DNA of 64,000 nt from Chitinophagaceae bacterium. GTDB taxonomy: Bacteria; Bacteroidota; Bacteroidia; Chitinophagales; Chitinophagaceae. The stretch is taken from positions 73,179-137,178 of the forward strand of contig CANFHA010000009.1 of assembly GCA_947446645.1 (NCBI GenBank). Direction: 5' to 3'. Both the position numbers and the translations under genes were made by a program. Positions 8,313-13,585 of this stretch are shown here, in pieces; within the stretch, counting starts at the first letter, position 1, and every line of letters begins with the position of its first letter. The notes under the pieces are model-generated. The model was not told where the DNA came from, made no database searches, and saw only the letters and a list, made by a program, of their open reading frames with translations.

Positions 8313-8765
8313 CTATTCTGCGGCCCTCATCTTGTCCAGTATATTACTAAGTGCCCGGGCCTCTTTGTCGCTTATTGTCATTACCTGTTCGGTAAGCTCG
8401 TCTACCGATGCTCGTGCCGTTTCGATCAATGTTATTCCCGATTCTGTAAGCGCCACAAGTGTTTCGCGCTTATCCGCAGGTGAGATAGTGCGTTTTGCAA
8501 GCTTTTTGATAACCAGCTTATCCAGTATCCTCGGAACATTACTGCTTTTCTCCACCATACGCGATGCAATGTCTTTCACTCGCATTTCATTTGGGTGGCT
8601 GCCTTTAAGTATACGCATCACATTATGCTGCTCCAGTGTAATGCCATGGGGCTTAAGGGCCGCAATTAAATGATCTTTCAGCCAGTATGCAGAAAAAAGC
8701 AGGTTGACGGAAGCCAGGTGCTTGTCGTTGGCAAACTTTGATTTTATGGCGTCATTTAATTTCAT
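8313..8765 (-). CDS. MarR family transcriptional regulator
   Basis: 150 aa; ITLEQHNVMRIL, SNVPRILDKL, DKRETLVALT. Confidence 0.92.
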   Translation of the reverse strand: MKLNDAIKSKFANDKHLASVNLLFSAYWLKDHLIAALKPHGITLEQHNVMRILKGSHPNEMRVKDIASRMVEKSSNVPRILDKLVIKKLAKRTISPADKRETLVALTESGITLIETARASVDELTEQVMTISDKEARALSNILDKMRAAE

Positions 8766-8917: not shown

Positions 8918-10309
8918 TTAGAGAGATTGCAGGAAGGCAACTACTGCATCGCGGTCACTCTTCGGCAGATTGGCAAACTGGTCTTTGCTGCGCTGCGCCT
9001 CGCCACCATGCCATAATATTGCTTCCTGTATGGTGCGTGCTCTGCCATCGTGCAGGTAGTAAGGTGTACCATTTGTTTTTTCAAACATGCCCACGCCCCA
9101 CAGTGCAGCAGTTTTCCATTCTGTGCCTGTAGCCAGGTAATCCGGTCGGTTATCGGCAAGGCCTGCGCCCATATCATGCACCAGCATATCCGTATATGGG
9201 TGTATACGCTGGTTGCTGAGTGCAGGGAAATTTACGTTTACACCGGTATACATAGTTGGCCGGTGGCAGCCAGCGCAGTTCATCTGCTTAAATAATAATT
9301 CGCCACGTTTCACTTGCGGGTCTGTTACATTTCTGTGCGCAGGCACAGCAAGTGTACGCACATAAAATATTACCGCATCTACCATTGTATCTGCAAGATC
9401 TGTAGCTGTGCTGTCACTTACGTACCGCATCTGGTCCTGGCCCCATACGCTTTTCTTAGGCTGCACATAGCTGGTCAGTCCCATATCCTGCTGAAAAGCA
9501 GTGGCTACCTGTACCTGCAGGGTAGATGTATTGGCCTTCATACCAAAGCGTCCCAGCTCAGTCTTTTTTGTAAATGGATTATAAACATAATTGGCATGCC
9601 CGGTGATACCGTCCCCGTTAGCATCTGCCGGATCTGCAAAGGCAAGGATCGTCGCCTCAGGAATATTCTCTAGTAGGCCAAGTCCGAATACCGGCGGCCC
9701 CAGTCGCGGCGAAGTCATGTACCCGGCAGGCAGCGGCATATAGGCATCAACAATGTTATAAGACGGTACATGCAGGCTTGTAATAGTGCCATCAGGAAAA
9801 GTATAAGACTGCTCTGTGCAAGTGAGATTCACCGTTACTTCCGGGTGCACACCGTAGAGGCCCACATTCTGCAGCTGGCCGCCAAAACCCGGTGCCGGAT
9901 TAGGACCGCCATGTGCATCTGTACCAGGTACACTGATGCGCATTAACAGAGATGAACCCAGTTGTCCGAAGGACGGTTGGCCAAAACCGTCGTTGTGATG
10001 GCAGTTGGCGCACGAAACATTATTGAATATGGGGCCCAGACCACCAAAGCGTGGTGCCGGTGCGGCTATGAAAGATTGTTCAAAAAGCGCATCTCCCAGT
10101 TCATGTATCCGCTCATCATTTGCGCTCAGTCCGGGAATAGGTGTGCTGAACGAGCTGGAGCTGATATCAAAAAAAGTAGCCGCACCTCCGGAGAGGCGCG
10201 GATCAAAATTGCTGTCATCATCAATTGCTGCATTGTTTGCCTTACGGCACATAACCATGCTCGTTACGGTCAGCACACAGCCCAATATCACACTTACCTT
10301 CTTTTTCAT
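8918..10309 (-). CDS. di-heme oxidoreductase family protein (DUF1111-like)
   Basis: Two CxxCH motifs (CANCH, CAGCH); GLGPIFN, FGLGLLE, YLHDGRART. Confidence 0.9.
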   Translation of the reverse strand: MKKKVSVILGCVLTVTSMVMCRKANNAAIDDDSNFDPRLSGGAATFFDISSSSFSTPIPGLSANDERIHELGDALFEQSFIAAPAPRFGGLGPIFNNVSCANCHHNDGFGQPSFGQLGSSLLMRISVPGTDAHGGPNPAPGFGGQLQNVGLYGVHPEVTVNLTCTEQSYTFPDGTITSLHVPSYNIVDAYMPLPAGYMTSPRLGPPVFGLGLLENIPEATILAFADPADANGDGITGHANYVYNPFTKKTELGRFGMKANTSTLQVQVATAFQQDMGLTSYVQPKKSVWGQDQMRYVSDSTATDLADTMVDAVIFYVRTLAVPAHRNVTDPQVKRGELLFKQMNCAGCHRPTMYTGVNVNFPALSNQRIHPYTDMLVHDMGAGLADNRPDYLATGTEWKTAALWGVGMFEKTNGTPYYLHDGRARTIQEAILWHGGEAQRSKDQFANLPKSDRDAVVAFLQSL

Positions 10310-10346
10310 ATCACTTCAAATCCTCAGACATTATTGAAAATCCTGC

Positions 10347-11414
10347 TTAGTCCTTTACGTAAGTTGTAATAAAAGTTTTCAACTCACCGTCAAGTGTACC
10401 CTGTAGGTCATTAATAGCAGTCATTGCTGTCTGCAGTTGTGTACGCTGGGTATACAGCGCACTTTCAAAGCTTACCGTCACATTGCCCAGGGCGGCTACC
10501 GCTGCGGCAAACTGTGATTTGATCTTGTTATCCAGCGAAAGGTTCTTCTGCGCCACCAGGTTGCTCAGGCTATTGCCACTTACCCCACCTATAGAACACA
10601 AGTATACGTTTTGTGCACCCTTTATATTGTTAGTGAAGTCCGTCATAGAGTTGTGGGAAAACGGAGATTCCGTTTTTGTAGAGTCCCTCAGGTCGTAAGG
10701 ATCCAACATTTTTCCGCCGCCCACTTCACCGCATATATCGGCCATTCCGGCTGCCAATGCCAGCAATGCATCTTTTTTAGTGGTATAGCGTGTACTACCT
10801 GTGCCGGCTGTGAGAAATTGTGATTGGAAATTACCACCGCTTGTTGCCCAGCTGGTGTTAAGAGCCGTGCAGGTAGTTAATACATCCTGCGCCAGAGCAA
10901 CCATGTATTTTTTATCTTTAGCTGTGAGTCCGGCCGCAGTCGCATTGCCGTTCACACCCCATAAAATATACTCAAGCGGGTGGAAACCACGAAGCGATTG
11001 CCCGAGGGTGCTTACTGTTGCCGTGTTAATATCACCTTCACTGCTACTGGTCATAAAGGAGTCGAGCTGCAGGTAGTCCACTGGCCACGTATCCATATTA
11101 GGATCATAGTTGTCATCCTCTACCGGCCCTACCAGGAAACCTTCGCAACCTTCCCATGTACTTCTTACAGAGCGCCAAGCATTTTGTGCGGCCACCAGGT
11201 TAACATCATTTGCTGTTGTATTCAGTGCAAGTATGGCATTATTAAGATCGGTAGCCCTATCCTGCAGGGTTTGGTATTGCGGCAAAGCCACCTTCCCTAC
11301 AAAGTCTGTGATCACCTGGCTTTCGGTAACCGCAGTTGTCTTGTTATCGTTGTTCTTATGGCAGCTGGAAAATACCAGGCAACCTGCAATAGAAAATAGA
11401 AATATTTTTTTCAT
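10347..11414 (-). CDS. imelysin family lipoprotein
   Basis: Lipobox FSSC; GFHPLEY (GxHxxE); ESPFSHNS. Confidence 0.92.
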   Translation of the reverse strand: MKKIFLFSIAGCLVFSSCHKNNDNKTTAVTESQVITDFVGKVALPQYQTLQDRATDLNNAILALNTTANDVNLVAAQNAWRSVRSTWEGCEGFLVGPVEDDNYDPNMDTWPVDYLQLDSFMTSSSEGDINTATVSTLGQSLRGFHPLEYILWGVNGNATAAGLTAKDKKYMVALAQDVLTTCTALNTSWATSGGNFQSQFLTAGTGSTRYTTKKDALLALAAGMADICGEVGGGKMLDPYDLRDSTKTESPFSHNSMTDFTNNIKGAQNVYLCSIGGVSGNSLSNLVAQKNLSLDNKIKSQFAAAVAALGNVTVSFESALYTQRTQLQTAMTAINDLQGTLDGELKTFITTYVKD

Positions 11415-11851
11415 GATGTCTTTTTTAGCTGAATGGAGATTTGGTCGTTTATGATTTGTGTTGTTAATTTAATCATATCCCGCTCAGCTGGCCCCTTGGT
11501 TACATGGCCTTCGTGGTCAAACTGGCTGCCATGCAGGGCGCAGTAATAGTTTTTTCCGGTGCGGGTAAGGGGCTGCCCGGCATGGCTGCACAGAAGTACC
11601 AGGGTAGTGTAGGTGCCGTTAGCGTTTTTTTGCACAGCCAGGTCATAGTCATAGTTGTTTACGCGTACCAGCTTATAGTCAGATTGTTCGAATTCCTTCA
11701 CGGGTATCAGCACTATATCTTCTTTGGATGAAGTTTTCACCACACCAAGCGGTGTTTTACAGGAATCCAGCAACGCGCTCAGCAGGAAACCGGAGCTCAA
11801 TGCGATACATATACCACACGATCCCTTTTTGATAAACTCTTTTCTGTCCAT
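11411..11851 (-). CDS. Rieske 2Fe-2S protein, exported/lipoprotein
   Basis: CSHAG and CALHGSQFD ligand boxes; Tat-like leader MDRKEFIK and lipobox LDSC. Confidence 0.92.
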   Translation of the reverse strand: MDRKEFIKKGSCGICIALSSGFLLSALLDSCKTPLGVVKTSSKEDIVLIPVKEFEQSDYKLVRVNNYDYDLAVQKNANGTYTTLVLLCSHAGQPLTRTGKNYYCALHGSQFDHEGHVTKGPAERDMIKLTTQIINDQISIQLKKTS

Positions 11852-11852
11852 A

Positions 11853-13115
11853 TTAGAATGAATAACCGATGCCGATATTTAAAAAAGCATTGTTGTGCTT
11901 ATAGGGCATCGCATTAGGATTTGGGTTAATAACCAGTGCTGAATTCTGGTCTCCGGTGCTCATCAGGCGCACATCGGCTTTCACTACTACGTGTGGTATA
12001 GGGAAATAACCAACACCGGCCACTATATGCGACTGCTGCAAAGTGCCGTCTATCACTCCGTTCGATGGTATGGTGGCATTCATATCCAGCATTTCATACC
12101 GTGCGAAGATGTTCAGCTGCTTATTTCTCATCTTTTCCTTTTTGGAAAGCTGAAACAGGTTGTAACCTAGTTCTGCATAGGCACCAAACATTTGTGAAGG
12201 CGTATTGTTGTCATATGCAAGATTCAGATGCTGTGCACCCGGCAGCGATATGTTCACTCCCAGCGCTTTAAAGGAGATACCGTTATTATTATACTGCACA
12301 TCTGCTTCTTCCACATAGATAGGAGTGCCAAACATGCCCGATTCCAGCTGCAGGCTATCTGCTGCACGGGGATTCAATGTAGTAGTGCCACCAAAGTAAC
12401 CAGACACCTGGAATTTCCAGTTGCCAGCGAAATATTGCACAGCAGCAGTTACCGCAAGATTGTTGGCGCCGGCAAACTGACCTTCTGCCCTGCCGCCTTC
12501 TATACCTCCGCCATGCTCAAACGCCGCGCTGTTAAGTCCGTTCACCAGGGCTACACTATAAGTAAAAGGTAGAGCTGTGGTTTGTCCGTAAAAGCCTACA
12601 CCTATCTCGCGCCAGGTAGATGGGATGATCATGGTCTCAACAAGCGGCCGTTCTACCCCATTGAAATTTATAGGCAGGTGGTTCTCATTCACGATACCTA
12701 TACGTGGCAGAAACAATCCGGCTACAATATATTGGCGTGGATTGAGGCTGAATTTGAGGTAGGCCTGTTCCATGGCTATTTCACCCGTCACGCCGCCACC
12801 TTCTACTTTTCCGTCTTCCACCTCCAGTTCAGAGAAGAAAGCGATCTTCCCGGTAAACTGGTGGCCCACAAATAGTACTGCCCTTTTAAGATCAGCAACA
12901 GATTCCTTCCTGTTGAAATCACGCTGGTACTGCACTTCTCCATATCCTGATATTACCGTTCTGGACCGGTTGCCGCCATAAGAATTGAGGGAATCCTCAC
13001 CGGTAGCCGCTACCAGCTGCTGTGCCGGTGTCAGTACCTGTGTTTTTTTAGTTTGAGCGGTTACGCTTTGTAAAGCCAATAGGCAAAGGGAAAGGCTAAG
13101 TATTTTTTTTTTCAT
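11853..13115 (-). CDS. outer-membrane beta-barrel/porin
   Basis: Signal peptide; FFSELEVE, MEQAYL, IIPSTWREIG; C-terminal IGIGYSF. Confidence 0.85.
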   Translation of the reverse strand: MKKKILSLSLCLLALQSVTAQTKKTQVLTPAQQLVAATGEDSLNSYGGNRSRTVISGYGEVQYQRDFNRKESVADLKRAVLFVGHQFTGKIAFFSELEVEDGKVEGGGVTGEIAMEQAYLKFSLNPRQYIVAGLFLPRIGIVNENHLPINFNGVERPLVETMIIPSTWREIGVGFYGQTTALPFTYSVALVNGLNSAAFEHGGGIEGGRAEGQFAGANNLAVTAAVQYFAGNWKFQVSGYFGGTTTLNPRAADSLQLESGMFGTPIYVEEADVQYNNNGISFKALGVNISLPGAQHLNLAYDNNTPSQMFGAYAELGYNLFQLSKKEKMRNKQLNIFARYEMLDMNATIPSNGVIDGTLQQSHIVAGVGYFPIPHVVVKADVRLMSTGDQNSALVINPNPNAMPYKHNNAFLNIGIGYSF

Positions 13116-13585
13116 ACGCAGACCCGGTAAAGGGGATGCAAAGAAACGCAGACATGCTGCAATCCATTTTTATAAATGGGAAAAAGTATTTACAAATAGC
13201 GAAACAAATCGGCTTTCACAGTGGATAGATATTGCTCCGAAATGCCATTAATGCCTGCTATTATTTTTAAAATAAGGTATTAGCGATATTCTATAACTAG
13301 TTATAAATCCTCCAAGACGAAGTACAAATAAAAATATCTAAAAATAATTTGTTAATTGCATATGAATAACAAACGAATTTCTATTTTGCATCGCGTTAGC
13401 AAGTGATTAACAAGCGGTTTAACGAAAAACACAACAAACGTTAACCAAAAAAGTAAAACTCGTTAACAAATAATAAACACCCCTAATTAAAATTGAAAAT
13501 CATTAAGCTACGGCGTATGAAAAACTTTACAACATTACCCTAAACAACCTGCGCAGCAACCAAGCATGCAAACGCGCAAACAACA

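Follow-up and report, generated by a model that had tools for sequence, protein, structure and literature searches.

A four-gene porin-Rieske-imelysin-dihaem operon of Chitinophagaceae as a probable envelope module for metal handling

Introduction

The movement and redox processing of free iron and manganese across the outer membrane and periplasm of aerobic Gram-negative bacteria are poorly understood. Here we analyse a 64,000-nucleotide stretch of DNA from a Chitinophagaceae bacterium (assembly GCA_947446645.1, contig CANFHA010000009.1, positions 73,179 to 137,178 of the forward strand; hereafter the window), which carries an operon for a porin, a predicted Rieske iron-sulfur lipoprotein, an imelysin and a dihaem c-type protein of the DUF1111 family (DHOR). 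Going by the species from which its nearest homologues come, the bacterium is probably a Flavipsychrobacter. We think it likely that the operon encodes an envelope metal-handling redox module. That it is a self-contained metal-redox operon that oxidizes and captures its metal in an Efe-like manner is the best explanation that we can offer overall, and we put it forward tentatively.

The closest described systems are the imelysin-DUF1111 operons reported by Xu et al. in 2011 (PMC3143127), among them Pseudomonas aeruginosa PA4370-4373 (IcmP), Vibrio cholerae VC1264-1267, the Synechococcus IrpA locus and the Bacteroides ovatus PIBO locus. They have in common with the window a GxHxxE imelysin encoded beside a full-length dihaem DHOR, both exported lipoproteins. 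Such loci are elsewhere regulated by Fur or iron, or show fitness phenotypes (PMC3143127, bioRxiv 10.1101/072470), and mutants in EfeO-like/DUF1111/DUF1513 operons have fitness phenotypes that connect these operons with metal uptake (bioRxiv 10.1101/072470). In Leptospira, imelysin/haem-protein operons are induced both by H2O2 and by iron limitation (PMC7567364), and a DUF1111 protein of Dinoroseobacter is peroxide-induced in a RirA-dependent manner (PMC8007024). A preliminary description of the window, made from the sequence alone, had linked imelysin and DUF1111 genes to iron uptake through the IrpA and IcmP loci, and the pairing is indeed published as iron-associated (PMC3143127). Imelysin-DUF1111 systems have been without a mechanism since 2011. 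The window operon differs from them in having one imelysin rather than two, and in the twin-arginine translocation (Tat)-Rieske lipoprotein and dedicated porin that precede the pair. A search for a DUF1513 propeller returned no match, and its control was silent too, so that this search is uninformative.

In outline the operon also resembles EfeUOB, the ferrous-iron uptake system of Escherichia coli and Bacillus subtilis, which combines a periplasmic haem peroxidase with a metal-binding protein of the M75/imelysin fold. The window imelysin matches the NCBIfam EfeO model weakly and in its C-terminal part (37.8 bits against a cut-off of 270). However, EfeB is a DyP peroxidase rather than a dihaem c protein, and EfeO has a cupredoxin domain. 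Efe moreover requires an EfeU/FTR1 permease, which was not found in the window's own genome, and includes neither a Rieske protein nor a porin; the window operon is therefore not an Efe system. A third comparison is with MnoP, a Mn2+ channel under metal regulation in the outer membrane of Bradyrhizobium japonicum (Hohle et al. 2011, as summarized in PMC9334652). By description only, MnoP is a precedent for an MntH-type importer of the inner membrane that has its own metal-regulated channel in the outer membrane; it is not known to have associated redox proteins.

Loci related to the window operon take two forms. In type A, the window form, the gene order is porin>Rieske>imelysin>DHOR, and type B is a DHOR>Rieske>porin trio with no imelysin. 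The preliminary description knew of no mechanistic account of the four-part form, and our literature search likewise found no paper describing it; searches on Rieske proteins with imelysin, with DUF1111, or with manganese, peroxidase and porin turned up no account of either type A or type B.

The four-gene operon and its products

According to the list of open reading frames (ORFs), the operon consists of four minus-strand ORFs that run in one direction and span positions 8918-13115 of the window:

11853..13115, minus strand, porin gene (420 aa, Sec signal peptide)
11411..11851, minus strand, Rieske gene (146 aa, Tat-like signal and lipobox)
10347..11414, minus strand, imelysin gene (355 aa, lipoprotein signal)
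8918..10309, minus strand, DHOR/DUF1111 gene (463 aa, dihaem c lipoprotein)

The porin and Rieske genes are separated by 1 nt, the Rieske and imelysin genes overlap by 4 nt, and 37 nt lie between the imelysin and DHOR genes. All four products carry export signals, the porin being joined by three proteins with lipoprotein-type signals, and together they would hold one 2Fe-2S cluster, two c haems and one HxxE metal site. The operon is a genuine, self-contained four-gene unit for exported proteins. Where the preliminary description spoke of four tightly coupled genes with Rieske ligands, a GxHxxE motif and two CxxCH motifs, the coordinates and spacing agree, and the translations contain the corresponding residues (C88-S-H90 and C104-A-L-H107 in the Rieske protein, GFHPLE in the imelysin, CANCH and CAGCH in DHOR).

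The Rieske protein, which is of the bc1/b6f type, belongs to the domain family PF00355 (1.3e-10, 41.5 bits against a cut-off of 20.3). Its cluster-binding pattern CxH...CxxH is present in 102/102 related Rieske proteins, and C31, C88, H90, C104, H107, G108, S109 and F111 are invariant in the alignment. The N-terminus, M-D-R-K-E-F-I-K-K, follows a pattern conserved among relatives (M-x-R-[RK]-x-F-[IL]); a Tat-like start in an RR, RK or KR version occurs in 87 of the 102 homologues (RR in 49), and the invariant Cys31 stands in an L-x-[SG]-C context. This N-terminus reads as a Tat signal followed by a lipobox, that is, as that of a predicted exported lipoprotein. The earlier suggestion that an exported Rieske lipoprotein supplies an electron-transfer step is supported as far as export and lipid anchoring go, by the Tat-like start and Cys31; the direction of the electrons and the partner are things that we infer.

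Although the sequence matches of the Rieske protein in the Protein Data Bank (PDB) are bc1/b6f Rieske subunits only, it scores 31-34 bits against NCBIfam PetC/Rieske models with cut-offs of 97-250, and the disulfide cysteine pair of bc1/b6f subunits (CTHxGC...CPCH) is missing from 36/36 type A copies. In addition, cytochrome b (PF00033) was not found in the window's own genome, which is 98% complete. Given scores far below the equivalog cut-offs, no disulfide cysteines and no cytochrome b in the genome, we conclude that this protein is not a bc-complex subunit. A sequence search of a 5.8-billion-protein set with the Rieske protein (P0002) reached only near type A relatives, and members of the wider family were recovered with a profile instead.

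The porin matches Porin_O_P (PF07396) at 20.9 bits, exactly at the cut-off. Its AlphaFold2 model (predicted local distance difference test, pLDDT, 74) has 16 strands, and the top Foldseek matches are OmpF, Omp32, PorB, OprP and OprO. Invariant residues include E96/E98/E100 on strand 3, E112/E116 on strand 4, R78, R339/E341 and N143/H146/R156 in loop 3. Since E96, E98 and E100 alternate along strand 3, they lie on one face of it, and this ExExE motif is found in 84 of 86 porin homologues, none of which has a CxxCH haem motif. Judging from the strand pattern rather than from coordinates, we read the conserved lumen-facing residues as glutamates and the pore as one that attracts cations. OprP and OprO are matched by the 16-strand fold among many general porins, and phosphate selectivity of the OprO/OprP type is unlikely because the conserved lumen-facing residues are acidic and do not form an arginine/lysine ladder.

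The imelysin is an IrpA/ICMP-type member of PF09375/Peptidase_M75 (3e-57, 194.8 bits), and its GxHxxE motif is kept in 27/27 orthologues. Its PDB matches are B. ovatus PIBO (3N8U/3OYV, 1.8e-38), 'iron-regulated protein A' (4ECG) and IcmP (7XRX), the PIBO structure being circularly permuted relative to the window imelysin. DHOR matches PF06537 over its full length (1.1e-102, 344.5 bits, profile positions 6-499). Exactly two CxxCH motifs occur in 80/80 DHORs, and the lipobox cysteine is conserved in the alignment of homologues. DHOR has no sequence homologue in the PDB, and its AlphaFold2 model (pLDDT 68, haem-free) returned Foldseek matches only to YhjA, BccP, MauG, MacA and CcpA, with weak template modelling (TM) scores of 0.25-0.35. 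On these weak scores, DHOR may belong, as a distant relative, to the superfamily of dihaem cytochrome c peroxidases and MauG.

Two forms of the locus

For a survey of the phylum Bacteroidota, the Rieske profile was run against 251 genomes and 40 of the highest-scoring loci were retrieved; 32 of these are type B, two are type A and six are lone Rieske genes. The family, whose members live in soil and freshwater, was surveyed in 121 Chitinophagaceae genomes, one per genus plus the window's own. The Rieske family is present in 42 of them, the full type A operon in about 24 (about 23 genera) and type B in 14. A four-gene order shared by 24 of these genomes is far beyond what chance would give; Compostibacter hankyongensis (G306, L092) is a cultured carrier. 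Three genomes (G333, G349 and G354) keep both forms, which suggests that the two differ in the signal that they respond to or in the metal that they handle.

Across about 95 related loci the Rieske gene adjoins a porin gene in nearly all, and this adjacency is better kept than the association with imelysin or DHOR. It occurs in both gene orders, with median gaps of -4 and 3 nt. Five loci consist of a type-A-like porin>Rieske pair with neither imelysin nor DHOR (one of the five ends at a contig edge), and DHOR is absent genome-wide from five genomes that retain only this pair. Since porin and Rieske genes are adjacent in both orders and the pairs persist in genomes that lack DHOR, they form the invariant core of the system. 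The preliminary description had staked its proposal on a synteny survey in which the Rieske gene might prove not to be conserved with the cluster; it is conserved, and no other gene stays with that of the porin as reliably.

In one genome with such a pair (G009, L016:8472-8647), a 52-codon remnant of a DHOR C-terminus, interrupted by stop codons, directly follows the Rieske gene, which points to a recent loss of imelysin and DHOR that left the porin>Rieske pair intact. An odd partial form is found in another (G396, L113:2898-4429), where a Rieske>imelysin pair without porin or DHOR lies beside two M16 peptidase genes.

The type B trio is recognizably related to the window operon, with identities of 30-38% for the Rieske protein, 21-27% for the porin and 34-41% for DHOR. 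Its members also share the Tat-like start and lipobox, the two CxxCH motifs, the ExExE strand of the porin and equally tight packing. The two forms differ in that the porin and DHOR genes have changed sides of the Rieske gene and that only in type A is an imelysin gene inserted; in type B genomes imelysin is either missing or unlinked. The DHOR of type B is about 400 aa long and covers Pfam positions 25-82 and 220-499, whereas that of type A is full-length (positions 6-499). The window operon thus has neither the order, nor the short DHOR, nor the TTAG-N6-CTAA site of the trio, and its porins are a separate clade: in the porin tree, 34 type A and 51 type B sequences are separated with a support of 100. 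Type A appears to be a monophyletic, family-wide rearrangement specific to Chitinophagaceae, and the window operon is best read as a putative hybrid, in which the porin-Rieske core of the trio has been joined to a canonical imelysin-DHOR pair.

Metal link of type B and promoters of type A

An exact TTAG-N6-CTAA site lies within 150 nt upstream of the type B DHOR gene in 28/42 loci and in 9/13 further loci, against a background expectation of 0.012 per 150 nt. We regard it as a candidate DtxR/MntR-type operator, and consider the link between the trio and metals strong. The commonest neighbour of type B is a regulator of the DtxR family with an FeoA-like domain (12 loci), often divergent from DHOR. 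Genes for FeoB (five loci) and Nramp/MntH (two loci) adjoin the trio, some of them directly upstream on the same strand, and metal genes of the Czc-type resistance-nodulation-division efflux or P-type ATPase kinds are nearby in about nine loci; DUF6660 recurs as well.

The extended sequence AATTAG-N6-CTAATT is also present in the window's own genome (G000), in perfect form before a DtxR/MntR-type gene (C18:108513) and with one mismatch before an Nramp gene (C7:132719). A mismatch-tolerant scan of this genome for TTAG-N6-CTAA is noisy, with near-perfect sites only at the regulator and Nramp genes. This sequence is likely the operator to which the genome's Mn/Fe repressor binds. None of its near-perfect copies lies at the type A operon, where we also recognized neither a Fur-type operator nor any other for metals. 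Compared with the trio, type A appears to have exchanged the MntR/DtxR-type operator for a different promoter repeat, which in the window has the following elements:

13204-13189 and 13183-13168, minus strand, tandem direct repeat (TTTCGCTATTTGTAAA and TTTCCCATTTATAAAA) with a 21-nt period, upstream of the porin gene
13139..13146, minus strand, TTTCTTTG, TAnnTTTG-type -7-like element, 24 nt upstream of the porin ATG

In general form, the repeat consists of TTTCC-N6-7-(C)GTAAA twice, with a period of 21-22 nt, just upstream of the TTTG -7-like box. It is seen by eye in most type A promoters, from more than ten genera, and a crude pattern for the unit finds two or more copies in 12/35 upstream regions. 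In the window's own genome a two-unit site is found once, and scans for further copies gave only loose matches and no regulon. As a feature specific to type A, the repeat is a candidate binding site for an activator. In an alignment of seven orthologous upstream regions TTTG-C-A is invariant, and we take TTTCTTTG to be the -7 box on the general pattern of Bacteroidota promoters. A scan for sigma-70 and terminator consensus sequences found fewer sites than in shuffled sequences; that consensus does not model Bacteroidota promoters.

Published expression data from Bizionia argentinensis bear on the type B trio. Using the published quantitative PCR primers, we located BZARG_RS03000 (named 'cytochrome c') and BZARG_RS03005 ('Rieske'), which proved to encode the DHOR and the Rieske protein of a type B trio. 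This trio lies at L033:5279-8000 (NZ_AFXZ01000008.1) and has three TTAG-N6-CTAA sites upstream. The two genes drop by 3.5 and 3.7 log2 units in an mliR iron-homeostasis mutant, where they rank second and third among the down-regulated genes, and a siderophore receptor, an imelysin and an FeoB-associated protein fall alongside them (PMC9478572). This places the Bizionia trio in the MliR regulon of iron homeostasis. The study contains no iron-limitation experiment. Its authors read the genes as respiratory complex III and cytochrome c; the gene context contradicts this, and we suggest that the respiratory reading needs revising.

Proposed function and alternatives

In the scheme that we favour, a divalent metal would enter through the cation-attracting porin, and the imelysin makes Fe2+ a likelier candidate than Mn2+. 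As the metal is oxidized, its electrons would run along a short chain, made up of the Rieske lipoprotein and the dihaem DHOR, to H2O2, which would be reduced at the peroxidatic haem of DHOR; they would pass from metal(II) to the Rieske cluster, then to the E-haem, the P-haem and H2O2. The Fe3+ product would be captured at the HxxE site of the imelysin and handed to an inner-membrane importer. The whole would follow the 'oxidise and capture' scheme of EfeUOB in B. subtilis, but with other components. That the operon handles metals by redox chemistry in the envelope is probable; the specific direction and substrate given here are a good deal more tentative.

Several points weigh against this route. 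An FTR1/EfeU permease (PF03239), as needed for Fe3+ uptake, was not found in the window's own genome, and the free-ion importers that the genome does have, among those searched for, are FeoB and Nramp, both of which take divalent ions. The Rieske partner would be superfluous if Fe2+ reduced DHOR directly. Because porin-Rieske pairs survive in five genomes without DHOR, the core function cannot depend on the peroxidase. Two haems and a 2Fe-2S cluster are an iron-costly outfit for a response to iron starvation. The type A loci themselves have TTAG-N6-CTAA in 0/9 and 1/27 cases, with no metal-related neighbour conserved and no neighbour of any kind kept beyond the genus. The DHOR model is haem-free and of modest confidence, the oxidant or reductant partner of the Rieske protein is one that we infer, and a role for type A in metal handling is argued from homology and context. 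Of the redox-coupled iron uptake chain put forward in the preliminary description, then, the parts, the motifs and the published iron-associated pairing stand, but a metal operator and conserved metal-related neighbours are missing from type A. The iron link of type A itself is indirect, and either Fe or Mn could be the metal.

The main rival is reductive uptake, which we consider unlikely on balance but deserving of attention. Here the Rieske protein and DHOR would pass electrons outward to Fe(III) or Mn(III) chelates entering through the porin, with the imelysin holding the metal meanwhile, and the resulting Fe2+ or Mn2+ would go to FeoB or MntH. Aerobes need a reduction step to use FeoB, and the importers found and missed in the window's own genome (FeoB and Nramp, not FTR1) are those that such a route would require. 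Type B, behind its candidate DtxR/MntR-type operator, adjoins FeoB (five loci) and Nramp (two loci), in some loci downstream of them on the same strand. MacA, a protein of the dihaem peroxidase fold that is tied to Fe(III) reduction in Geobacter, is among the fold matches of DHOR. However, no electron source is encoded, for neither the operon nor its genome was found to have a quinol dehydrogenase or a cytochrome b; the characterized members of the CCP/MauG (cytochrome c peroxidase/MauG) fold all use peroxide; the published imelysin-peroxidase precedent is oxidative; and type A loci show no link with FeoB or MntH.

The persistence of the porin-Rieske core raises a rather improbable but appealing alternative, in which the porin and the Tat-Rieske lipoprotein would be an outer-membrane redox unit, either an iron-sulfur analogue of the Cyc2 and MtrAB conduits or a redox-gated cation channel. 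The 2Fe-2S protein would dock at the porin and there exchange electrons with metal ions, either inside the pore or on its far side, and DHOR and the imelysin would be exchangeable periplasmic accessories. Such a unit would account for the adjacency in both gene orders, for the pairs without DHOR in five genomes and for an electron partner that depends on the form of the locus. As in Cyc2 and the MtrAB/MtoAB/PioAB conduits, a gene for an outer-membrane barrel is invariably paired with one for a small exported redox protein. In contrast to those conduits, the redox protein has a single 2Fe-2S cluster and no haem, CxxCH is found in 0/86 porins, and the 16-strand barrel has a loop-3 constriction like that of diffusion porins, so that the operon does not belong among them. 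In such a unit the porin and the Rieske protein, which are paired as genes, would also form a physical complex.

Periplasmic peroxide defence is likewise improbable. DHOR would then be a cytochrome c peroxidase and the Rieske protein its dedicated donor, and the link to metals would be regulatory only, in that cells short of Mn or Fe are sensitive to peroxide. Bacterial cytochrome c peroxidases normally take electrons from small soluble redox proteins, the fold matches of DHOR are only dihaem peroxidases and MauG, and the related genes of Leptospira and Dinoroseobacter are induced by peroxide. Against this, a role in peroxide defence explains neither a dedicated porin with an invariant glutamate ladder nor the imelysin, leaves the DHOR-less porin-Rieske pairs and the same-strand placement beside FeoB and MntH without a reason, and has no known reductase for the Rieske protein. 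Finally, a respiratory role, with the Rieske protein as a bc1-type component and DHOR as an ordinary cytochrome c, is hardly credible, for although the nearest named relatives of the Rieske domain are bc1/b6f subunits and both database names and the Bizionia study (PMC9478572) interpret the genes so, the Rieske protein scores far under the NCBIfam cut-offs (34 bits against 154-250), cytochrome b was not found in the 98%-complete genome, the small lipoprotein always stands beside a porin and a DHOR lipoprotein, and the trio carries a candidate metal-repressor operator.

From the perspective of envelope metal metabolism, the operon adds a putative Rieske electron carrier and a dedicated porin, probably lined with glutamates, to the imelysin-DUF1111 pair. 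Homology ties this pair to a phylum-wide trio with a candidate DtxR/MntR-type operator, so that the operon offers a minimal system of four proteins that is open to testing. By this comparison, hundreds of entries that databases call 'cytochrome b6-f iron-sulfur subunit', 'thiol oxidoreductase' or 'cytochrome c' are flagged as parts of what is probably one envelope metal module. New here are the monophyly and probable hybrid nature of type A, the loss of its metal operator, its own promoter repeat, its coexistence with type B, the porin-Rieske core and the identity of the Bizionia genes.

Flanking genes and other upstream features

In the window the operon is flanked by a MarR-family gene that is not conserved, by genes for a DUF5723 protein and PdxJ (pdxJ), and by the gene for a 2134-aa surface protein. 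The MarR-family regulator gene (8313-8765, minus strand) shares the strand of the DHOR gene and follows it after 152 nt; because it is at this position in no other type A locus, it is probably outside the module. A perfect 14-nt palindrome, TATAACTAGTTATA, is present at 13292-13305, in the 470-nt divergent gap between the porin operon and the surface-protein gene, and is not conserved in the orthologous upstream regions.

Four other genomes (G001, G022, G009 and G016) share a pair of upstream features, both of which are missing from the window's own genome. A hydrophobic mini-ORF of about 30 codons (M-x-N-D-D-T-T-T-Y-I-L-V-G...) lies 150-300 nt upstream of the type A operon, and is preceded by a Fur-box-like sequence, GTAATTCATTAATTATCA (L013:3700-3960, L014:9850-10100, L016:6400-6650 and L017:6400-6650).

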